From Candidatus Nomurabacteria bacterium (GTDB taxonomy: Bacteria; Patescibacteriota; Minisyncoccia; Phycocordibacterales; UBA9973), in the NCBI GenBank assembly GCA_023267195.1, contig JAHFNT010000003.1, positions 10,841 through 74,840 on the forward strand: a stretch of DNA of 64,000 nucleotides. The letters run 5' to 3'. The notes under the pieces were generated by a model that searched no databases, was not told the DNA's origin, and saw only the letters and a program-made list of their open reading frames with translations. The translations under genes were made by a program, and so were the position numbers. Below are positions 6,001-63,470 of the stretch, one piece after another (position 1 is the stretch's first letter; each line of letters begins with the position of its first letter).

Positions 6001-9000
6001 AATCACCCGAGGCGGTACAGGAACTAGGATTATTGGTCGCACTCCAAGTGATAGCTGGGTTAATACTCCCTGTTGTACCAGTACTAGGGGTGGCTGAAAT
6101 AGTTACTATCGGTACAGGAATCGTGGCCACCACCATTGCAGTCGCTTCTGCGCTATCTCCGCCAGCGTTGGAACAAACTAAACTATAGTTATATATTTTT
6201 TGTATTGGGAGTACTCCTTGCGACACACTAGTACCACTAACTGCTCCTCCGTTGGTATTGGTCCAGTTCCCAGAAAAAGTACAGGAGGTCGGATTGTTTG
6301 TAGCGCTCCAGGTTATAGCTGGGTTAATAGTTTGTGCTGGACCAGAAGCTGGAGAAACAGAAATAGTTACTACTGGTACAGGAGGAAGGGGTGGCTGACA
6401 CATACCTCCAATCCAACTTGTTCCTGATACACAAGTTGCGTAAGCTGTAGCGCTGGCTAGCGTTTCGCCATTGTTATTTAAAAAGAAATCTCTTAGACCG
6501 AAAGATGTTTGAACGGGATAGAAAGTTACTGGAATAGATACAGTGCCAGAATTGCCATTCCCAACTACAGTATTTGGGTTTTCCCTGTTTGAAGTGACAT
6601 TCGAAATACCAACTGGGTTTGTCGTATTCCAAGCCAAAGTCGTATTACAAGAACTAGCGCCGGAGGCAATTGTGCAGTTTGAAGCGGTCAAACTTCCGGA
6701 CATAACAGGCTTATCTTCGGAACATGAGGGAGAGGTATTGGACCCACCATTTTCGCCATTACAATTCCACAGATATTGTGTCGCGGAGTCTGGAATATCA
6801 CTTAAAATTCCTGCCTGACAAGCATTCACACTGACTCCACAGACGCCATTTACTGGACTACCTGGTGTGGTTTGACACATATTTTTTACTGCATTCCAAG
6901 TCGTACCCGAAGCGCAATTGGCGCTGACAATTGTTGTAGCTAGGGTACTTGAGTTATTAACCAAGCTGCAATTAACTGTGGGACTACTGTGAGAAATAGT
7001 TATAGACTGTGAACCAGAATTGGCGGTTATTGAACTAGGCGTAGCCCCCGGACAGGAAACAGTGGAAGTGCCAACCGGATAACTTGTATTCCAAGTCAAA
7101 GTTGAAGTACAAGAGTTTGCCCCAGAATTAATAGAACAGTTGGCGGGTGAAGCACTCAAGGTTCCGGATGTGAAGTTTTCTTGAACAAAGCTTGCCAGAA
7201 CTGCACATTCGGCATTAATAGGCCCAGTAGTATAAGTATTGCCAGCAAGAGAACCCCCGCAACCTGAAACCAAAGAAGTATATCCGGTATTGGGAGTAAC
7301 GGTAAAGGTTGTCGTGTTGCCCGCCGTCACCGTCCTAGAAGCAGGTGAAATAGATCCATTGGGACCGGCTGTGGCGGCGACACTATATGAGATCGAAGAT
7401 TTTGGCGCAGTGCAGGAAACACTTACTCCTCCATTTGACCCGTTGCAATCCCATCTATATTGGGTTGAAGTATCGCCAGTAGTACCACTGCTGGTACCCG
7501 CATCACAAGTGTAAGCAACCGCTGGGACTGAACAAGCGCCATTTATTGGGGAAGATGACGTCGCGCAAATTGTTCCATTCCAAAAAGTACCCGTATCACA
7601 GGAAGAAGTAACAGTTATACCGGCACCATTTGGCGATGTTGGAACAAGTGATTTGGCGTTGTTGTATAAATAAAAAGTTCTACTGCTGTAAGGAACAGTT
7701 AAAGTTTGACTGCCTGATGTGCCAGATAAATTTATATTTGACATTCCAGTTGCAGTGATAGCTGAACTTGCTGATTCTGGACTTGCCACACTCCAAGTTG
7801 AACCGACAGTACAACTACTCTGCCCTAAGGCGATGGTGCAAGAAGAAGATGCAGGAACAAGAGTACCGGTCATAGAAGGACATGGACTGGTAGTAAATGT
7901 TACATCTGTTCCAGCTCCAGTACCCACGCTGTTTACGGCATACGCGCGAAAATGATAAGCGGTATTGCATGTCAACCCGCTTACGTTTTGTGTAAAGTTT
8001 CCTGTTCCAAAACTTCCAGACTGAGGATAAGGACTTCCATAACTCGTACTGGTACCAAAATCAAAACCTCTTTGAGTTGCATTTACTCCTCCAGTATTTG
8101 TTATATTTCCATTTAGAGCGGCAGAAGTTTGAGTTACATTTGTAGCTGAGTTGGTGGTGACAGAGGGATCTATGATCGAGGATGATGTAAACGAAAAAGA
8201 AATATTACAGTCTTGGGTAATAGCCCCTGTGGTATATACACTACCAGATGTAAATGATCCTTTAATTGGACAGTAGTCCTGCACAATACTAGACAATGAT
8301 GAATTAACGCTAAAGAATGTGGTATCCCCATACACTACTGATCTAGATCCTGGAGATACTGTACCACCAGACCCATAACTTGCAGTAACAGTATGCGGTT
8401 GGACAGTATACACAGGACTAGAACAACTAGCTGAATTGCCAGCTAGATCTGTAATAGTAACACTACAAGAACTTCCAGCTGAAGCTGTACAAGTTCCACC
8501 GGCTACGTTTATGCCACTCTGCCCGCTAATACCACTGGCAGGCGCATCGGTTGCGCCGGAAAGTGTGTATGTAGGCCCTGATCCACTCCAATTTGCACTG
8601 CTAGGACTAGGACAAATAGGATCAAGCGTATCTATTCTATTCACCGGACTTTGACATGTAGTAAAATTTTGGGTTACTGATGGACAAGGAGTGAAGTATT
8701 GATAACTGGTAGTATCAATACAAGAGGCAGTACATGTAGCGTCATTAGAAGTACCAGTAGTACAACTACTTGTATGGTTAAGCGTACTGCTCCCATCGGT
8801 ATAACTTTGATTTAAAGTAAAATATTGAGAGCTCGCAGTTGTTTTCCAAGGAATAGGAGAAGCTGGGGTCCAAGTGGCTGGGTATGCAACACATTCTGCA
8901 TTAGTAGTTGGCTGTAAAGAAATAGTAACAGTTTTAGTGGGGCCATCGTAAGGGTCTGGTTGACAATTTTGCGCGATAAAGACAGCAATTTGCGCATTGG

Positions 9001-9316: not shown

Positions 9317-9441
9317 ATTTATTTTTTCTCCGCTCCCATGGTTTAATAATACTTTCAATTGTACTACAAAAAATGTAAAAAGTTATCTAAAAAGTTATCC
9401 ACATAATTTAAAAAATTTAAAATTATAAATTTAGGCAAATT

Positions 9442-24298: not shown

Positions 24299-24320
24299 TG
24301 ATCAAGAAGTTCGTTAGTGC

Positions 24321-24370
24321 TTGATTGCAGTTTTGAGGGTGTTTATTAGTACTTTCAAAACCGCAATCAA
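24321..24370. promoter_or_regulatory. 16-bp near-perfect inverted repeat (candidate operator) between promoter and SD
   Basis: TTGATTGCAGTTTTGA ... TCAAAACCGCAATCAA (1 mismatch) separated by 18 bp; ends ~25 nt before the start codon. Confidence 0.45.
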
Positions 24371-24395
24371 GCGGAATTTAGAGAAGGAGGAGATC

Positions 24396-24920
24396 ATGAA
24401 GATCTCTCGTGTCATCGCTCTGTTCGTCTCTACCTTCGTCATGGGGTTCTCCCTATGTTTCGTGGGGCGTTGTCTCGACAGCGCCATGGAGGCGTTCGAA
24501 GAGGCCAAGACGTCTCTCGTTCAGGCTGGCGGAGCCGAGACCCACGGTTACTACCTGTGGCACCAGGCCGGCAACCGCGCCCTGATCATCGGGGCGATCC
24601 TGACTGTCGTAGCGGTGATCTCGTGGGTGGCAAGCTTCTTCCTGATCCGACGTCATGGGTGGGGAAAGCTCATCTCTCACACCGAACTCCGACCGGGTAT
24701 CTATCGTCTCGTGTGTGCGGGGCGACAGGTGGGACGCGCGACACCCCTGGCGATCATCGAGTACGAGGGCTCTCTGGTGGCGTGCAAACTCCCCGTCCTT
24801 GATGACGAGAGGATACTCCAGTCTGGAGAATACATCAGGGTGGAGTATTCCAAGACGAGCAACCGCTGGTACGCCAGCGTGCTGCCTGACGACACATCGG
24901 TCGCCAACGTGACCACCTAG
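24396..24920 (+). CDS. hypothetical two-TM membrane protein encoded in GC-rich (~60%) cassette
   Basis: 174 aa from ATG at 24396 with strong SD GAGAAGGAGGAG; TM helices ALFVSTFVMGFSLCFV and LIIGAILTVVAVISWVASFFLI; surrounding ORFs on other frames judged shadow ORFs. Confidence 0.55.
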   Translation: MKISRVIALFVSTFVMGFSLCFVGRCLDSAMEAFEEAKTSLVQAGGAETHGYYLWHQAGNRALIIGAILTVVAVISWVASFFLIRRHGWGKLISHTELRPGIYRLVCAGRQVGRATPLAIIEYEGSLVACKLPVLDDERILQSGEYIRVEYSKTSNRWYASVLPDDTSVANVTT

Positions 24921-25020
24921 CTCTTTCCCTTCTCCCCCACTTCCTCGCCGCGAACTGGTGATCTTCGCAATAACTAACCAAAGGGCCCGAGAGAGCCCCA
25001 TCAAATCTCTCGTATCGAAA

Positions 25021-25060
25021 AACGGCGTCGCCCACATCGGGCGCGCCGTTTCCTCGTTTT
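25021..25060 (+). terminator. GC-rich rho-independent terminator of cassette gene
   Basis: AACGGCGTCGCCC-ACATC-GGGCGCGCCGTT followed by TCCTCGTTTT. Confidence 0.5.
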
Positions 25061-27207: not shown

Positions 27208-28734
27208 ATGAGTATAATAATAATTTTGATGGGAGTCGGAGTACTCCTCTTAGGTATTGGGGTAGGATATTACCTCCGCGTGTTGGTCGCGCTCGGCAAA
27301 AGGAGATCCATAGAAATAGATATCAAGCAGATGATGGTCGGGGCTAAAGAAGAGGCCCAAAGAATTACCGATGAGGCCAAGAAAAAATCAGAAGAAACAC
27401 TCTCAAATTTAAAAGAAGAAGAGAAGAAAAAAGAGCAAGAATTCAGGGAAACGGAAAAACGACTTATCAAAAAAGATGAGTTCTTGGATGCACGGCAGGT
27501 TGAGGTGAATAAAGAAGCAGAAGGCATCAAGCAAAAAGCCGAGGAAGTTAAAAAAATTCAGGAAAAAGTTCTGAAAATAGAAGAAGAAAAAAGATCGGAA
27601 CTCGAAAGAGTATCCAAGCTCACTGAGGTTGAGGCTAAAGAAGAACTTCTGAAAGACGTTGAAAAAAAATATGAAGAGGATATCATGGTGCGAATCCAAA
27701 AATTGGAAAATAGCAATGAAGAGAAGCTGGACAGACGCGCGAAAGATATTTTAGCAACCTCCATCCAGCGCTTGGCTGCCAGCACCGCTTCTGAACTAAT
27801 GACCACGATAGTAACCATACCCAACAATGAAATTAAGGGCAAGATTATCGGGAAAGAAGGCCGAAACATCAGAGCCTTTGAGCGAGCAGCCGGAGTGGAA
27901 TTAATAGTGGATGATACTCCGGGCTCAATCATCATTTCCTCTTTTGACCCAATCCGCAGACAAGTGGCAAGATTGGCGCTGGAAAATCTTATCTTGGACG
28001 GACGCATTCAACCTGCCAAAATTGAAGAGCTGGTGGAAAAAGCCAAAGAGGAAATAAATAAAATTATTAAAGAAAAAGGCGAACAAGCAGTCTATGAATG
28101 TGGGATTTTCAATTTTGACCCACGTATTGTGTCAATCATCGGCCGATTATATTTCCGCACTAGCTATGGGCAAAATGTTCTCCAACACTCTATCGAAATG
28201 GCGCACATCGCTGGCATGATAGCAGAAGAATTGGGCGCAGATGTAGCCATAGCGAAAGCTGGGGCCTTAGTGCACGACATCGGTAAAGCGCTAGACCACG
28301 AAGTGCAAGGCACGCACGTCGAAATAGGCATGCGCATCTTGCAAAAATTTGGCGCCGATGAACGCATTGTGACTGCCATGAAATCTCACCACGAGGAATA
28401 TCCTTATGAGACCATAGAATCCATAATCGTGCAGACGGCCGACGCCATTTCCGGAGGCCGCCCAGGCGCGCGCCGAGATTCCGTAGAAAACTACTTGAAA
28501 CGCTTGCAAGAACTTGAAGCGCTAGTAAATGCTTTCCCGGGTGTAGAAAAATCATACGCATTGCAAGCCGGACGCGAAATTCGCATCTTCGTAACGCCAG
28601 AAAAAGTTTCTGACGCTGAAGCGAAGTTGATGGCCCGCGAAATTGCTATCAAAATTGAACAAGAACTCAAATACCCTGGCGAAATCAAAGTCACGATGAT
28701 CCGTGAGACCAGGATTATCGAATATGCTAGGTAA
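27208..28734 (+). CDS. rny: ribonuclease Y
   Basis: 508 aa; N-terminal TM anchor, long coiled coil, KH domain (GKIIGKEGRNIRAFE), HD domain (HSIEMAHIAGMIAEELG...HDIGKA). Confidence 0.9.
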   Translation: MSIIIILMGVGVLLLGIGVGYYLRVLVALGKRRSIEIDIKQMMVGAKEEAQRITDEAKKKSEETLSNLKEEEKKKEQEFRETEKRLIKKDEFLDARQVEVNKEAEGIKQKAEEVKKIQEKVLKIEEEKRSELERVSKLTEVEAKEELLKDVEKKYEEDIMVRIQKLENSNEEKLDRRAKDILATSIQRLAASTASELMTTIVTIPNNEIKGKIIGKEGRNIRAFERAAGVELIVDDTPGSIIISSFDPIRRQVARLALENLILDGRIQPAKIEELVEKAKEEINKIIKEKGEQAVYECGIFNFDPRIVSIIGRLYFRTSYGQNVLQHSIEMAHIAGMIAEELGADVAIAKAGALVHDIGKALDHEVQGTHVEIGMRILQKFGADERIVTAMKSHHEEYPYETIESIIVQTADAISGGRPGARRDSVENYLKRLQELEALVNAFPGVEKSYALQAGREIRIFVTPEKVSDAEAKLMAREIAIKIEQELKYPGEIKVTMIRETRIIEYAR

Positions 28735-28855
28735 CTTGCCTTAAAAAACCCTTGATATATAATGGAGGGGTATTAAAAATAAGGGTTAAATGCCACTCCG
28801 ATCTAGATCTGGAGGGCTAGGTCGAGAATAATTATAAAAATAACTAAAAAAATAT

Positions 28856-29128
28856 ATGAATAAACAAGCATTAGCAGAGTGGGTACATGGAAAACTAGGA
28901 GGAACCAAGGTTCAAGCAGAAGAAATCGTTGATGGATTGTTTGATGCTATAATCCAAACCTTGAAAAAGGGCGGTGAAGTATCAATCGCCGGCTTCGGAA
29001 TCTTTTCTGTAAAATCTCGCGCTGCTCGCATGGCTCGCAATCCAAAAACTGGGGAGCAGGTCAAGGTAGCTGCCAAGAAAGTGCCAAAATTCCGACCTGC
29101 AAAAGGTTTGAAGGATATGGTTGCCTAG
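28856..29128 (+). CDS. hup: HU-family nucleoid-associated DNA-binding protein
   Basis: 90 aa; HU/IHF fold signature GFGIFSVKSRAARMARNPKTGE. Confidence 0.9.
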   Translation: MNKQALAEWVHGKLGGTKVQAEEIVDGLFDAIIQTLKKGGEVSIAGFGIFSVKSRAARMARNPKTGEQVKVAAKKVPKFRPAKGLKDMVA

Positions 29129-29151
29129 TTTTTACTTCGAAGTAAAAATAA

Positions 29152-29177
29152 AAAGCCCCACAAGGGGTTTTTTATTT
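29152..29177. terminator. strong bidirectional rho-independent terminator
   Basis: AAAAGCCCC-ACAA-GGGGTTTTTTATTT; preceded by perfect palindrome TTTTTACTTCGAAGTAAAAA. Confidence 0.7.
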
Positions 29178-29196
29178 GGACAACAAATCAAATTTT

Positions 29197-29721
29197 TTAT
29201 TTTTGAGGTATTGGTAATCCAAGCTTTTGTAATGGTAAATATTTAAAATAATATTGACACCCAACAGATATTATATAATCACAAACATCTTTATAGGACG
29301 AGTGTTTGAACCAATCACTAAGTATATAAATGTATTCCACTTCTATGTTTAGAGGAGCCATTAACTTTGCATATTGTTTTCTTTTAAAATCACATGTTTG
29401 TAATTTTTCATCAACAGAACCTGCGACTTTTTGAAATTTTACTTCAATAATAAAAAGTGTGTTATTTACAATTACATAAATAGCTTCATCTGGCAATAAT
29501 TTCTTAGAAAGAATCTTTTTATAATCAATTTTTTTAGATTCGAGAAATTTATACAATGCGTTCTTCTTGAAACTCCTTGCAACTTCTTTCCCATTGTAAA
29601 GTATAATATTACCATTAATTTTGTAACCTTTCTGTTTTTTTAGTAACGCCAAAATATCACTTTCTTTTTCAAAATTTAACCCAGTTATTGTATTACCACC
29701 ACCCTTTCCTTTTTCAATCAT
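29197..29721 (-). CDS. Type II restriction endonuclease (PD-(D/E)xK fold), candidate
   Basis: 174 aa; D...IIEVKFQK PD-ExK-like core; start overlaps stop of the DNA methyltransferase; very AT-rich relative to neighbours. Confidence 0.5.
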   Translation of the reverse strand: MIEKGKGGGNTITGLNFEKESDILALLKKQKGYKINGNIILYNGKEVARSFKKNALYKFLESKKIDYKKILSKKLLPDEAIYVIVNNTLFIIEVKFQKVAGSVDEKLQTCDFKRKQYAKLMAPLNIEVEYIYILSDWFKHSSYKDVCDYIISVGCQYYFKYLPLQKLGLPIPQK

Positions 29722-29722
29722 A

Positions 29723-30544
29723 TTATTTTTTTAAATCATTAAATCGCTTTATTGATAAATCTAGATAATTTTTTTCCATATCAATACCAATGAATTTTCT
29801 ACCATTCATTACTGAAGCTATGCCAGTAGTAGAACTTCCCGCAAAAGGATCTAGAACAACGTCCCCTTTGTTTGTGCTGGATAGAACAATACGCTTCAAC
29901 AAATCTAAGGGCTTCTGAGTAGGGTGCTTTCCGTACTTCTTCTCCTCTGGTTTAGGTGTGCCCATAGACCAAACTGATCTCATTTGAAGTCCTGGTTTTT
30001 TTAATCTATCTTCCGGCCAATTTCCATCTTTCATTTCTCTATAATTAAAAGTGTGTTTTGCTCTTTTGTCTTTTCTGGCCCAAATGATTGTTTCATGACT
30101 TGCTGTAAAAAAACGACAACTCAAATTTGGTGAAGCATTAGGTTTAAACCAAGATATATCATTTAAGATATGGTAACTTAGGGACTGTAAGGCATGTCCA
30201 CATTGATAAATGGAATGGTATGTGCCGCTCACCCATAAGGTACCATTTGGTTTTAAAACACGTTTACATGCTTGAAGCCAACGATAATGGAAGGCATAAT
30301 CATCTAAAAAACCTTTACTGATGTCCCACTCACCTTTATTTACACTAACCATTTGTCCTGCGTGCACAGTAAAGCCTCCATTTGACAGATTATATGGCGG
30401 ATCTGCAAAAATCATATCAACTGAATCTTCTGGAAGTTGATTTAAAATATCTAGACAATCTCCATTGTATAAAACAAAATTATCCTTAGAAAAATAAGGC
30501 TTATTTTTAACTACCGAAAGAATTTTTTTATCTACAACTACCAT
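29723..30544 (-). CDS. DNA methyltransferase, beta-class N6-adenine/N4-cytosine (DPPY)
   Basis: 273 aa; motif IV DPPYNL near N-terminus and motif I LDPFAGSSTTG near C-terminus (beta-class order). Confidence 0.85.
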   Translation of the reverse strand: MVVVDKKILSVVKNKPYFSKDNFVLYNGDCLDILNQLPEDSVDMIFADPPYNLSNGGFTVHAGQMVSVNKGEWDISKGFLDDYAFHYRWLQACKRVLKPNGTLWVSGTYHSIYQCGHALQSLSYHILNDISWFKPNASPNLSCRFFTASHETIIWARKDKRAKHTFNYREMKDGNWPEDRLKKPGLQMRSVWSMGTPKPEEKKYGKHPTQKPLDLLKRIVLSSTNKGDVVLDPFAGSSTTGIASVMNGRKFIGIDMEKNYLDLSIKRFNDLKK

Positions 30545-30567
30545 ATACTTATATTAACATTTTTTGG

Positions 30568-31080
30568 CTAAAAACGAATTTCTTCATTGTATAACCTTTT
30601 ATAAACTTCCGTTGATTCTTTAATAAGGCGAATAATATGTCTCTTTAGGTAAATTTTGTACTCACCATAGAAAAAAGCTATATCATCTTCATAATCTGCT
30701 CCATGCGATACACCATCTATGCTTATTGCATTCGGAACTTTACCACTAATCATATTGAAAACAAATTTAATCTGATATTTCTTATCTAGTAGGTTTTCAG
30801 GAGAACTAAGATGAAAAGCGGAATTACGAACTTTATTTACTAAATCAGTAATATCGGAAATGTCTGTGTTAATAGAAACATCGTCCTTAAAATTTATACG
30901 CTCTCCTAATTTAACAAATTTCTGTAATAAATCATCAAGTTTTAGAATTATGGAAATAAAAACTGGCTCACGAAACACTCTAAGAACATCAGCCCCAAAT
31001 ATACCTGTGTTAATAAACTGGACTATGTCCCGAATGTTTGATTCTATTTGAGATTTTATAAAAAAATTATCTTTATCCAT
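30568..31080 (-). CDS. HEPN-like (Rx4H motif) protein, candidate abortive-infection/RNase toxin
   Basis: 170 aa, predicted all-alpha; motif RNSAFH matching HEPN Rx4-6H; ATG 2 nt after lexA stop with AGGAAA SD inside lexA 3' end. Confidence 0.35.
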   Translation of the reverse strand: MDKDNFFIKSQIESNIRDIVQFINTGIFGADVLRVFREPVFISIILKLDDLLQKFVKLGERINFKDDVSINTDISDITDLVNKVRNSAFHLSSPENLLDKKYQIKFVFNMISGKVPNAISIDGVSHGADYEDDIAFFYGEYKIYLKRHIIRLIKESTEVYKRLYNEEIRF

Positions 31081-31082
31081 TT

Positions 31083-31661
31083 TTAGTATTTCCTAATCAC
31101 CGCTTTTACCACTGCATTTATATTTAAAGAATGTTCTGGGTAAATGGGTTGATAATTTTTATTGGCAGGTTCAAGCCAGGCTTTGGCACCACTCTTTCTA
31201 AAATATTTCATCGTGAATTCCCCATCCACTTCGGCTATGACTATTTGCCCATCGTCGGCTTTATTCGTCTTCTCCACGAGCACCATATCTCCGGGTTCGA
31301 TGTGCGCCTCGATCATAGAATCGCCGTCAACTTCGAGCATATAGGTAAGCGGTTTATTTTTTATTAAAAGATCGTCGAGGTTTACAGTATCTGCCAGCTC
31401 TTCTTCGACTGTCGCGGGAAAACCGGCCGTGACAAAACCGAGCAATGGCACACCCCCAGCTTCCTCTCCAAAAGTTTCAGACGGAATTAATCTGCCAAGA
31501 TGATCCTTCGCCACAATTCCCGCCTCGATTAACTTTTCCACCACGCGAAACACCGCGTTCTTTGATTTAAAACCGAATAACTGCAGCATCTCCGAATACG
31601 ACGGCATGCGTTTATTGTCTCGGTAAAAGGATTCTAGTTTTATTTGATGCAAACTACGCAT
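31083..31661 (-). CDS. lexA: LexA-family repressor (wHTH + S24 self-cleaving peptidase)
   Basis: 192 aa; N-terminal wHTH, cleavage-site region, S24 Ser/Lys dyad context (DGDSM ... K). Confidence 0.85.
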   Translation of the reverse strand: MRSLHQIKLESFYRDNKRMPSYSEMLQLFGFKSKNAVFRVVEKLIEAGIVAKDHLGRLIPSETFGEEAGGVPLLGFVTAGFPATVEEELADTVNLDDLLIKNKPLTYMLEVDGDSMIEAHIEPGDMVLVEKTNKADDGQIVIAEVDGEFTMKYFRKSGAKAWLEPANKNYQPIYPEHSLNINAVVKAVIRKY

Positions 31662-31860
31662 AAATGTTCGTTCGGAAAAATAGAGTAACTAGTTTGTTGG
31701 TGAAACTTGTTCTCGTATTATAGCGAACTTTCTTCAAAAGCAATTTGTGATCCCTCGCCTCTTTGCGATAATCCAATCCTTGGAGAATTTTTAAGTCAAT
31801 TTTTTTATTGATCTTTTGAATCTCCCTCTCTAACATTTTTACATATTGTGATTGTGACAT
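31654..31860 (-). CDS. small basic coiled-coil protein overlapping lexA start, hypothetical
   Basis: 68 aa; ATGA-type 8-nt overlap with lexA; first ORF downstream of the LexA-box promoter. Confidence 0.35.
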   Translation of the reverse strand: MSQSQYVKMLEREIQKINKKIDLKILQGLDYRKEARDHKLLLKKVRYNTRTSFTNKLVTLFFRTNIYA

Positions 31861-31900
31861 AAAATTTATAAATTAAATTGCTAAACGACCTGCCTATATA

Positions 31901-31929
31901 GTATAAGTGAACGAGCGTTCACCTGTCAA
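31901..31929 (-). promoter_or_regulatory. sigma70-type promoter for the lexA operon (minus strand TTGACA-17-TTATAC)
   Basis: minus strand reads TTGACAggtgaacgctcgttcacTTATACtatata; LexA box lies in the spacer. Confidence 0.5.
31907..31922. promoter_or_regulatory. LexA operator (Cheo-box type GAAC-N4-GTTC), perfect palindrome
   Basis: GTGAACGAGCGTTCAC, 6-bp perfect arms; located between divergent lexA operon and ORF 31989. Confidence 0.65.
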
Positions 31930-31988
31930 TAAGCAAACTGTGGATAACTTCTAGGCCCTATAAAATATAAATATATTATACTTAAATT

Positions 31989-32303
31989 ATGAAACCCGAA
32001 GGTCCATCAAAATTACAAGATATAAGTTTAGATGGGAGAAAAAGGAATAAAGAATATCAAGAGTTTATTCTTGTATTTTTACGAGAGAAATTGTTTGAGA
32101 TTTTACTCCCCGGAAAATCAAAAATATTATGGACACTTGGATTAACTGGCTCTTCAAAAAACAAAGAAGGGGTAACGGAAGATGACATAAAAACATTTAA
32201 AGAGATATTAAAATTGGGAAATATAAAAGAAATAGAAAGTTATTGCAAAACAAAAGGAATAGACTTTGAAAAAATTTTAAAGGAGGCAGAGGAGGAGAAA
32301 TGA
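31989..32303 (+). CDS. hypothetical protein
   Basis: 104 aa ORF divergent from lexA operon; no recognizable motifs. Confidence 0.35.
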   Translation: MKPEGPSKLQDISLDGRKRNKEYQEFILVFLREKLFEILLPGKSKILWTLGLTGSSKNKEGVTEDDIKTFKEILKLGNIKEIESYCKTKGIDFEKILKEAEEEK

Positions 32304-32564
32304 AATATAAACTTTAAAGAAGGGGACGAGTGTCTCGTTGCCCCTCCTAGAGCTCGACGAATTGGTTACGGGTTTGGGGCCTTTCTCCCCTCTCCCCATA
32401 ACACCTGGAGTGACATCGGCGCCGAGACTTTTCGTCCCAGCAGTCGTACTCCCAGGTGTGGATTTCGTTGTTGCAGATGGAACAGATTTCTATTTCGACG
32501 TAGATCTCAGCAGACTCTTCCACGGTACACCTCTTCGTTTATTATACTAGCACAAAAACAAAAG

Positions 32565-34154
32565 CTAGCTATTCACCTTTGGCCTGTATTGTAGAGCTTC
32601 CAGGATGTGATTCGCTTCTATATTTTCTTTGTTTTCTAGGTCCGCAATCGTGCGGGCGATTTTGATAACGCGGTGATAAGCGCGAGCAGAGAGAGCTAGG
32701 CGTTCGGCGCTGTTATTTAGAAGCTGTTTGACTTCAGGCGCAAGTGGAGCAAAAATTCCCAGCTCTTTCACATTCATGTCGCTGTTAGTTTTCACTTTTC
32801 TGCTTTTGTTGTCATTTTTCTGAAATGTTTTGAATCTTTTCTCTTGAATGAGCCGCGCATTTTTCACTCGTTCTTTGATGGTCGCAGTTTTCTCCCCTGT
32901 TCCGGCCGTATCACTCAATTTTTTATAATCAACGTTTGCCACCGTCACCCATAGATCAATGCGATCAATAATCGGTCCAGAAATCCTCCGCGCATATCTA
33001 TCCAAATCATTCTGCCGGCAAATGCAACTCTTATCTTTGTTCCCCTTATTGCCACATGGACAAGGATTCATCGCCGCCACTAAAATAAAATTGGAGGGAA
33101 AAATAGCCGAACCTCGCGCCCGCGAAATTGAAACGATGTTATCTTCGAGCGGCTGGCGCAATGCCTCTAAAACTCTTTTTTCAAATTCAGGAAATTCATC
33201 CAGAAACAACACGCCTTTGTGCGCCAGAGTTACTTCCCCGGGCTTGGGGTTTGATCCTCCGCCAATCATAGACACATAACTCGCAGTGTGGTGCGGGGCG
33301 CGGAATGGAGGTTCGGTCACTAGAGAATCCTCGAGCAAACCCACGATAGAATGAATGCCAGTAATTTCTAAAATATCATCATTGGGTAGTTCCGGTAAGA
33401 TATGAGAGAAAACTCTCGCGAGCATTGTCTTGCCAGTGCCAGGTGGCCCAGAAAGAGCAATGTTGTGCCCTCCCGCAGCTGCGATTTCGAGCCCGCGCTT
33501 TGCGCTCTCTTGCCCCCGGATATCCGAAAAGTCTATATCATGAATCGCATTTCGGCGGATTATTTCTGTGTCTTTTTGCGGTAAAATTTTTGGTCGCGTT
33601 TTTTCTATCCCATTTCCATTTTTATCCAAAGGTATTTTTGAAACATGATCAATAACTTCTTTAAGCGTCCTTGCGCCGTAGATCGTGATGCCGTGAACGA
33701 GCGCCGCTTCCTCAGCATTCGCGATCGGCACAAATATTTCTTTATATCCCAAACGCATTGCTTGTTCGGTGAGAGGCAATACGCCTTTGATCGGCTGAAG
33801 CTCCCCATTTAACGAAAGTTCTCCCAAAAATATTTTTCCTTTTGGATCAAAATCTATTTCTTCAGCGGAAAGCAAATAAGCAAGCGCAATCGCCAAATCA
33901 AAATACGGGCCTTCTTTCTTTAAATCTGCTGGGGATAAGGAAATGACAATTTTTTGATTCTGGTTTTTGGGAGACTTGAAACCGGAATTTTTTAAAGCCG
34001 AACTCATGCGATCTTTCGATTCATCGACAGCTTTGTCGGGAAGACCAACCAAGGTAAAAGCATGCAAAGTATTTTTAGTAATATCAACTTCAACGGTAAC
34101 AATTTTCCCTTTTAATAGGTGGGTTTGCGCAGAATATACTCTGGAGAAGCTCAT
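32565..34154 (-). CDS. comM: Mg-chelatase-like AAA+ protein ComM/YifB
   Basis: ORF extends to 34223 but ComM-like start MSFSRVYS at 34154; Lon-like N-domain, Walker A GPPGTGKT, ChlI-type motifs, C-terminal zinc-finger-like CPCG. Confidence 0.85.
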   Translation of the reverse strand: MSFSRVYSAQTHLLKGKIVTVEVDITKNTLHAFTLVGLPDKAVDESKDRMSSALKNSGFKSPKNQNQKIVISLSPADLKKEGPYFDLAIALAYLLSAEEIDFDPKGKIFLGELSLNGELQPIKGVLPLTEQAMRLGYKEIFVPIANAEEAALVHGITIYGARTLKEVIDHVSKIPLDKNGNGIEKTRPKILPQKDTEIIRRNAIHDIDFSDIRGQESAKRGLEIAAAGGHNIALSGPPGTGKTMLARVFSHILPELPNDDILEITGIHSIVGLLEDSLVTEPPFRAPHHTASYVSMIGGGSNPKPGEVTLAHKGVLFLDEFPEFEKRVLEALRQPLEDNIVSISRARGSAIFPSNFILVAAMNPCPCGNKGNKDKSCICRQNDLDRYARRISGPIIDRIDLWVTVANVDYKKLSDTAGTGEKTATIKERVKNARLIQEKRFKTFQKNDNKSRKVKTNSDMNVKELGIFAPLAPEVKQLLNNSAERLALSARAYHRVIKIARTIADLENKENIEANHILEALQYRPKVNS

Positions 34155-60016: not shown

Positions 60017-60214
60017 TAACTTATGTGGATAACTATGTTAGTAATGTTTATAAAGGACATATTTAAAAATTGTTTTTTAATGCCATTTTTAACTAAAATA
60101 CATTGTTAAATAAAGATATTTTGATAAAAGACACAAAAAATTTCTATTTTGTTTCATGTGAAACATGTTTCTTGTGAAACATCAGAATTACTTGCAAAAT
60201 AAGGATAGAATAGA

Positions 60215-63101: not shown

Positions 63102-63470
63102 GATAGATCTTAATATTTTTATTTTAGATTTTATAAAACAAACTAAATGTCGCGAGATTTCCTTTCCAACCCCAATTTAGACTAATGAAAATAAGGGTAG
63201 AATCACAGGACGACCAATAGGTTCTGCAAACAAAGGTTCTCACGATGGTTACTGTCGTTTCTGGTCTTTCGGTCAGCTCATACCCAACTCCCATTCGGAA
63301 CTACAATTGCAATGATAGCTCAAAAAGGGTCAAAAGTCAATCTGGCAAGGTTTAGCTGTGGATAAGTATTTTTGGTCAAAATTTGACAAAGTTGGGTAAA
63401 AATATGCCTAATTATAAAGGACATGGGATTGAAAATTAGACGAGAATTTTAAAGGGTATATAATACTACC

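Follow-up and report, generated by a model that had tools for sequence, protein, structure and literature searches.

Toxin genes regulated by LexA are known from SOS operons of Escherichia coli, among them dinB-yafN-yafO-yafP, symE, tisB and dinJ-yafQ. Bacteria of the candidate phyla radiation (CPR, Patescibacteria) have tiny genomes, mostly go without CRISPR and are thought to be reliant on restriction-modification (R-M) systems; to our knowledge, the acquisition and control of accessory defence genes in these bacteria is largely unexplained. Here we describe a lexA operon from a stretch of 64,000 nucleotides of a Candidatus Nomurabacteria genome (contig JAHFNT010000003.1, positions 10,841 to 74,840; hereafter the window), in which lexA is preceded by a 68-codon gene, small68, and followed by the gene of a stand-alone HEPN-like protein, a DNA methyltransferase gene and a nuclease gene. 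The reading that we consider probable, with real room for doubt, is that of a small68-lexA operon with an insertion site at its 3' end, holding a promoterless HEPN-like gene and an R-M cassette that has its own promoter.

How does this locus compare with the closest described systems? In the SOS-operon toxins of E. coli a growth-arresting, nuclease-type gene is also controlled by a LexA operator, and in some cases it rides at the end of the operon as a passenger; symE has been described as a LexA-regulated toxin gene (PMC1891008). In the window, however, the passenger lies in lexA's own operon and is fused to the lexA stop codon, its predicted fold is that of HEPN, no antitoxin or antisense RNA is evident beside it, and the host belongs to the CPR. 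PrrC with EcoprrI offers a second likeness, that of a HEPN ribonuclease (RNase) gene beside an R-M system as a proposed second line of defence, and at least 16 HEPN clades are linked to R-M systems (PMC3710099); but here the HEPN-like protein lacks an ABC-ATPase or any further regulatory domain, and the R-M linkage is inconstant and variable in order. The 'Integron cassette HEPN' family (PDB 3jrt; Table 1 of PMC3710099) is a distant sister at best, since searches of PDB sequences with the single protein and with the family profile (E<=10) return nothing, and the CPR members of the HEPN-like family are not in integrons. The HEPN-MNT (type VII) toxins (7ae2, 5yep, 8xdj) differ in that neither the window nor any of about 45 contexts of homologues has an MNT nucleotidyltransferase gene beside the HEPN-like gene, and in the extra beta insert found here between helices 3 and 4. 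Core-genome defence hotspots and integron platforms (PMC10250203, PMC10121019) share with the present site a variable, defence-rich cargo between conserved core genes, co-oriented cassettes behind one promoter and occasional repeats resembling attachment (att) sites, whereas here the site is a gap of 50-90 nt between stop codon and terminator, there is no integrase, and the upstream promoter, as lexA's own, would be under LexA control. Finally, Type II systems made of a CcrM/HinfI-type methyltransferase and a small PD-(D/E)XK endonuclease are matched by both genes of the R-M pair, though the methyltransferase scores 250 bits against the CcrM model (3.5e-74), far under its equivalog cutoff of 830 bits, and the nuclease belongs to an unannotated family.

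Each element is thus precedented: LexA-controlled toxins, HEPN-R-M linkage, integron-borne HEPN cassettes and defence hotspots at core genes. What sets the present locus apart is the position at the stop codon in lexA's own operon, the tight sense orientation of the cargo, and the fact that a single unannotated HEPN-like family, an integron cassette in Proteobacteria, has been recruited to lexA repeatedly in divergent CPR lineages.

An insertion site between the lexA stop codon and the terminator

What lies behind lexA in related genomes? The comparison covered 80 metagenomic loci (76 after dereplication) whose LexA is 77-87% identical to that of the window. Their common gene order is ComM ... 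small68-lexA, with hup and the RNase Y gene running convergently. The site is empty in 27 loci, where the hup stop lies 50-88 nt past lexA and only a bidirectional terminator stands between, and filled in 40, where 0.47-5 kb of cargo directly follows the lexA stop; the terminator that comes right after lexA in empty loci is pushed to the far end of the cargo in filled ones. These 67 loci are the informative relatives, and about 60% of them are filled. The gap between lexA stop and terminator is therefore a recurrent insertion site for accessory cassettes, a micro-hotspot inside the lexA transcription unit. The initial annotation had taken the three AT-rich genes of the window to be acquired within this unit, and the empty state of 27 of the 67 relatives, together with the different cargo of others, bears it out. 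Cargo often stands behind lexA in the relatives; the R-M pair is also found after parAB, and most HEPN-like genes are away from lexA.

The cargo has a strong direction. Of the cargo open reading frames (ORFs) with a length of 100 aa or more, 65 lie on the lexA strand and 4 on the opposite one; the first cargo gene is co-oriented with lexA in 31 of 34 loci (binomial 8e-7, for loci that are not phylogenetically independent), and in 30 of the 31 co-oriented cases the cargo begins 2-92 nt past the lexA stop. It consists mainly of nucleases and R-M systems, with six or more different systems of the latter kind. Among them are the methyltransferase-nuclease pair of the window, a methyltransferase with RE_EcoO109I, and a 524-aa methyltransferase with RE_TdeIII; a Dcm-type methyltransferase is paired with a 366-aa protein, a Dam-type one with a 185-aa protein, and a further pair is made of 339-aa and 182-aa proteins. 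The other cargo genes encode HNH nucleases, NYN, a Bro-N/DinD-like protein, a trypsin-like protease, MOSC, HAD and a Liv-type ABC transporter.

Did the three cargo genes of the window arrive as one defence island, as the initial annotation proposed? The order lexA, HEPN-like gene, methyltransferase, nuclease is found in the window and in L119-L122, while in L001 (Candidatus Nomurabacteria GW2011_GWB1_43_19) and L087 the HEPN-like gene comes last. In L001 a 42-nt duplicate of the lexA 3' end, finishing ...AAGGAAATACTAAAAATG, stands before the ATG of the HEPN-like gene, and the last 17 nt of this remnant junction are identical to the lexA-HEPN junction of the window (...TAGGAAATACTAAAAATG). Therefore the fusion of lexA and the HEPN-like gene is the older event, and the R-M pair came in later, at different points. 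The same pair occurs in L001, L051, L067 and L119, follows parAB in L147-L150, and is very widespread in CPR, where it is elsewhere unlinked to lexA. Judged by these arrangements, the cargo of the window is two independently placed cassettes, the HEPN-like gene and the R-M pair, and the idea of one island has to be given up, given the permuted order in L001 and L087 and the copies of the R-M pair after parAB.

The methyltransferase matches N6_N4_Mtase at 7.9e-59 and the PADLOC model MTase_II at 1.8e-98, and has the DPPY motif. In the nuclease the PD...EVK motif (D78, E93, K95) is invariant at all three residues, and the fold is like those of N.BspD6I, EcoO109I, NgoMIV and BstEII. These motifs and the fold, with the two genes travelling together, support a recurring pair of Type II R-M type, as had been annotated, with the nuclease as the presumed endonuclease partner. 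GANTC is present in the window at 0.71 of expectation, a mild deficit that is mid-range among similar palindromes, so that its avoidance, taken as a pointer to the specificity of the methyltransferase, is unremarkable.

The initial annotation also set all five genes behind one promoter. The strong shared promoter stands, but it is hardly the sole one. A TGnTAnAAT motif lies 6-7 nt before the methyltransferase ATG in four of the five cassette copies behind lexA (TGTTAATAT in the window; TGATATAAT, TGGTAGAAT and TGTTAAAAT from L001, L051 and L119), and because of this conservation the R-M cassette is likely to have a promoter of its own. The cassette measures about 1.37 kb, from about 20 nt before the methyltransferase ATG through the nuclease stop. 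Over all first cargo genes, an extended -10 of the form TGnTAnWWT is found within 40 nt of the ATG in 15 of 31, against 3.4% expected, and typically 6-10 nt before it, in many genes as TGnTATAAT. Such short spacing suggests leaderless or near-leaderless mRNAs for the R-M methyltransferases.

Could the five genes be one selected unit all the same, with the LexA-controlled promoter as the only one, and RNase and restriction induced together by DNA damage or phage attack? Note that no terminator intervenes from lexA to the nuclease gene, yet the R-M cassette has its conserved extended -10 and occurs elsewhere without lexA. The cargo is strongly co-oriented with lexA and dominated by R-M systems and nucleases, but Liv transporter, MOSC and HAD genes are also found in it, and 27 of 67 relatives have no cargo at all. 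HEPN-R-M linkage is a known defence theme (PMC3710099), and a trio of lexA, R-M system and HEPN-like gene recurs in L006 with a non-homologous Type IIG system and a LexA 28% identical; against this, the order of the HEPN-like gene and the R-M pair is variable. What is more, a LexA-repressed methylase would risk self-restriction. We therefore consider one integrated SOS-defence operon unlikely.

The lexA transcription unit and its putative operator

The five co-directional minus-strand genes are all present where the initial annotation had put them (Table 1), and most of its description of their junctions stands. The 3' end of small68 overlaps the lexA start by 8 nt. From the lexA TAA to the ATG of the HEPN-like gene there are 2 nt (AGGAAATACTAAAAATG), and the Shine-Dalgarno-like AGGAAA upstream of this ATG is made of the final Arg-Lys codons of lexA. 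The single factual slip concerns the methyltransferase stop, which was said to overlap the nuclease start: the two are separated by 1 nt (TAATATG). The difference in base composition is also as described, with a GC content of 44.0% in lexA and 29.4%, 34.7% and 26.9% in the HEPN-like, methyltransferase and nuclease genes (window, 39.6%); the contrast is larger at third codon positions, with 46% in lexA and 19-25% in the three cargo genes.

Table 1. Features of the lexA operon and of its insertion site, in coordinates of the window
Feature	Position	Strand	Remarks
DnaA-box consensus TTATCCACA	31939-31947	-	about 10 nt upstream of the -35; conserved in relatives
Sigma-70-type promoter TTGACA-18-TATACT	31900-31929	-	11/12 match to consensus; kept in 66/69 related loci
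Putative LexA operator GTGAACGCTCGTTCAC	31907-31922	-	GTGAAC-N4-GTTCAC with GAAC-N4-GTTC core; in promoter spacer
small68 (68 aa)	31654-31860	-	first gene of operon; function unassigned
lexA (192 aa)	31083-31661	-	S24 peptidase with putative divergent N-terminal winged helix-turn-helix
HEPN-like gene (170 aa)	30568-31080	-	stand-alone; from ORF list, family alignment and AlphaFold2 model
Candidate extended -10 TGTTAATAT	30551-30559	-	6 nt before methyltransferase ATG
Beta-class N6/N4 DNA methyltransferase (273 aa)	29723-30544	-	DPPY, CcrM/HinfI-like; from domain and profile matches
PD-(D/E)XK nuclease (174 aa)	29197-29721	-	presumed restriction endonuclease partner; from motif, fold and pairing with methyltransferase
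Bidirectional intrinsic terminator AAAAAACCCC-TTGT-GGGGCTTTTT	29144-29177		-18.1 kcal/mol; common to nuclease side and convergent hup
hup (HU)	28856-29128	+	convergent; distal conserved anchor of insertion site

That the 192-aa protein is a true LexA, as annotated, is supported by its match to the TIGR00498 equivalog over residues 13-191 (126.8 bits, cutoff 110.95), by Peptidase_S24 at 2.4e-28, by a dyad of the GDSM Ser and K152 that is invariant across four divergent LexAs, and by an Ala-Gly site in VTAGFP. Its N-terminus, a putative divergent winged helix-turn-helix, matches LexA_DNA_bind at E=0.12 and 12.7 bits, under the cutoff of that model. The gene small68 lies immediately upstream of lexA wherever the contig reaches far enough: it is there in 78 of 80 related loci, and the remaining two contigs begin too near lexA for a judgement. 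It has 517 homologues, all unnamed, and no match in Pfam, NCBIfam, PADLOC or PHROGs. Its product is basic and probably helical; a role as SOS effector, for example as a division inhibitor, would be speculation.

Is the operon under LexA control? The shared promoter is the top promoter-like site of a 3.9-kb scan, and its -35/-10 spacer holds, as had been noticed, a perfect 16-nt palindrome. The core GAAC-N4-GTTC, which we take to be that of a Gram-positive-type LexA box, is not rare by itself, with 2 occurrences in the window against 0.83 expected; the second one, at 28902-28913 inside hup, was judged probably due to chance. The main evidence for a real operator is that the promoter and palindrome are kept as a block in 66 of 69 related loci while the flanks have diverged, the form common to the relatives being TTATCCACA-N9-10-TTGACA-(A/G)GTGAACGnnCGTTCAC-TTATACT. 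From this conservation and the type of box we infer that LexA binds there.

Downstream, the promoter/terminator scan of the operon found no strong terminator between lexA and the nuclease stop, and the strong hairpin with its T-run comes only between the nuclease gene and hup. An Rfam scan of 28700-32600 gave no RNA family. The HEPN-like gene has no visible promoter of its own, no extended -10 and no room for one. Since it also begins 2 nt from the lexA stop, it would depend on the lexA transcript.

The following scenario may then be proposed. LexA would repress the small68-lexA promoter through the spacer palindrome, and so regulate itself. On DNA damage, RecA-stimulated self-cleavage of LexA would give more transcript of small68, lexA and the HEPN-like gene. 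The last of these would be made only from the lexA transcript, with the last lexA codons as its ribosome-binding site, so that the dose of the HEPN-like RNase would follow LexA synthesis and could act as a growth brake triggered by damage or infection. It might also back up restriction, a role that has been proposed for HEPN proteins linked to R-M systems (PMC3710099). The R-M cassette would be expressed constitutively from its own extended -10, probably as a leaderless mRNA, with read-through from lexA adding to it, because no terminator intervenes. In view of the gene layout, LexA and the SOS response are likely to control the HEPN-like gene, whereas their influence on the R-M pair would be no more than additive, through read-through; an SOS-linked expression of the HEPN-like protein is plausible. 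If the coupling holds, a potentially suicidal RNase would be wired to the sensing of DNA damage without an antitoxin, and the site would be a practical place for mining new small defence genes of uncultured bacteria. If it does not, a clean insertion site from stop codon to terminator is still there.

The upstream side of the operon has features of its own. Perfect copies of TTATCCACA occur four times in the window, in AT-rich intergenic DNA, where about 0.5 would be expected; besides the one at the lexA operon, which is kept in nearly all 69 relatives, they lie at 9395-9403 (+), 60024-60032 (-) and 63357-63365 (-). The conserved copy suggests a second regulatory input on lexA, possibly by DnaA. 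Among the relatives, small68 lies anywhere between about 100 and about 2900 nt away from ComM, a spread that makes the 5' side of the operon a second variable region; a divergent AT-rich ORF of 104 aa at 31989-32303 (+) in the window, with a GC content of 29.8%, is not matched in any of the related loci. Several relatives (L040, L080, L113, L044, L066, L086 and L092) have short GC-rich palindromic insertions between the -10 and small68, for example ...CCCCTACCCAACCTCCCCCTACGTAGGGGGAGG... and ...GCGTCGCGC...GCGCGACG..., which resemble miniature repeat elements.

The HEPN-like family and its recurrence behind lexA

HEPN domains are defined as four-helix up-and-down bundles with Rx4-6H at the end of helix 3, a polar residue after the R, and a conserved acidic residue in helix 2, typically within Ex3[KR]; those that have lost catalysis are usually without the Rx4-6H motif (PMC3710099). 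The AlphaFold2 model of the 170-aa protein (predicted local distance difference test, 92.5) shows four helices in a bundle, with a beta insert separating helix 3 from helix 4. Helix 3 of the model stops at residue 89, which places an Rx4H motif at its end: R85 and H90 of R-N-x3-H are invariant in 35 sequences, and the polar N86 is at least 90% conserved. So is D50-x3-K54 inside helix 2, with D where HEPN typically has E. Bundle, helix-3 motif with its polar residue, and helix-2 acidic/basic motif are those by which the HEPN superfamily is recognised. The protein matches nothing in Pfam, NCBIfam, PADLOC or PHROGs. The label given in the initial annotation is upheld by the invariant residues and the modelled fold, though not by Pfam, and the case for a HEPN-like protein, from alignment and model, is good but not conclusive. 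By prediction, such a protein would be an endoRNase that needs no metal, and an effector of growth arrest or abortive infection.

The 170-aa protein has 70 close homologues, and its family falls into about 571 clusters at 50% identity. Almost all members stand alone and measure 150-210 aa, with a few reaching about 280 aa. The family has no constant neighbour, no Pfam family recurring among 110 flanking proteins, and nuclease or R-M genes are frequent nearby (DpnI twice, Vsr with Dcm, DUF559, NYN, a UvrD-like helicase). In two distant CPR genomes a 271-aa protein is encoded about 105 nt ahead of the HEPN-like gene (L129 2575-3390, L130 2580-3395); one of the two matches DUF5677 at 30.7 bits (Pfam cutoff 27.1), and this protein may be a partner specific to a subclade. 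Several CPR genomes have the HEPN-like gene 0-8 nt behind the stop of an unrelated co-directional gene. In Frateuria (L020) it is a true integron cassette between two attC sites, in an array of 18 attC-like copies over 8.6 kb; ends resembling attC also precede other proteobacterial copies, no attC was found around the copy in the window, and 14 viral contigs carry the gene. By these contexts it behaves as a mobile single-gene cassette, often promoterless. The Frateuria locus itself (Frateuria sp. GZRR35, L020 1-8619) is a dense chromosomal integron array, with about 18 attC in 8.6 kb, and includes duplicated cassettes (300 nt at 1831 and at 6508, 99% identical).

Then why is such a gene found behind lexA again and again? 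The majority of the family is not adjacent to lexA, but three lineages whose LexAs are only 27-28% identical have the gene downstream of it: the window clade; L124, in which a HEPN-like copy 65% identical begins 27 nt past the gene of a 223-aa LexA; and L006, in which a Type IIG R-M fusion, 2 nt past the gene of a 213-aa LexA, stands between lexA and the HEPN-like gene. Because the lexA 3' sequences differ among the three, one att site would not be sufficient for this recurrence. By a rough estimate, which is an inference rather than a formal test, three independent hits in about two dozen CPR contexts, with genomes of about a thousand genes, are far above random (about 1e-5).

This recurrence is one of three points that weigh against our preferred reading, an operon with a 3' insertion site and two separate cassettes: it exceeds what a passive hotspot would give and points to a functional tie. 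The other two are that an internal promoter may exist within the lexA 3' end, and that a toxin lacking any visible antitoxin or sensor domain requires some other restraint. In a more far-reaching reading, the lexA 3' end in CPR would be an integron-like SOS platform without integrase, to which a LexA-tethered HEPN-like RNase would have been recruited repeatedly. Sense-oriented cassettes, mainly R-M systems and nucleases, with or without promoters, would be captured between lexA stop and terminator, and the SOS promoter would read into them; the HEPN-like family would have been recruited behind three LexA lineages, twice with an R-M system between; and through a stoichiometric or temporal tie the synthesis or cleavage of LexA could, for instance, be the restraint that replaces an antitoxin. 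We put this forward as a tentative and rather unlikely extension.

At the other extreme, adjacency to lexA might have no regulatory meaning, the orientation being fixed by directional recombination or by tolerance of the gap. In keeping with this, the cargo is heterogeneous, half of it brings its own promoter, and at three independent loci, L001/L087, L051 and L086, it lies between att-like direct repeats made of the final 27-42 nt of lexA. But these, the only ones left by a strict local-alignment test, are 3 of about 27 filled loci; the repeats are absent from the window, where direct repeats flanking the cassettes are only AT-rich noise. A looser scan of the whole cargo for short pieces of the lexA 3' end gave about as many matches in shuffles (95) as in the cargo itself (102). 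No integrase or recombinase is found in the cargo of any locus, a promoterless HEPN-like gene 2 nt from lexA must rely on the lexA transcript, and the adjacency recurs with unrelated lexA 3' sequences. A pure by-product of insertion thus seems improbable to us. As a separate observation, the members of a small ORF family (64-68 aa, cluster C12) terminate exactly at the second copy of the lexA 3' end in L051 (about 8560-8650) and L086 (about 6330-6410), which carry different cargo; this may be a chimeric frame produced by insertion.

It is equally improbable that the 170-aa protein is no toxic RNase and is instead a non-catalytic or differently acting four-helix protein, such as an RNA- or nucleotide-binding accessory of SOS or R-M: Foldseek gives its model no significant match in the PDB, its sequence falls in no known family, it has no antitoxin partner and heterogeneous neighbours, and its conserved beta insert with an acidic YEDD motif and an invariant R147-H148 is unusual, but R-N-x3-H is invariant at the exact catalytic position of HEPN, the helix-2 motif accompanies it, and HEPN domains without catalysis usually lose the former (PMC3710099).

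One further feature lies away from the operon. A GC-rich island at 24300-25050, with a GC fraction of 0.54-0.63 in a window of 40% GC, is situated between clpP and a ClpB/ClpC-like gene; Rfam gives no match there, and its two overlapping ORFs on opposite strands have none in Pfam.

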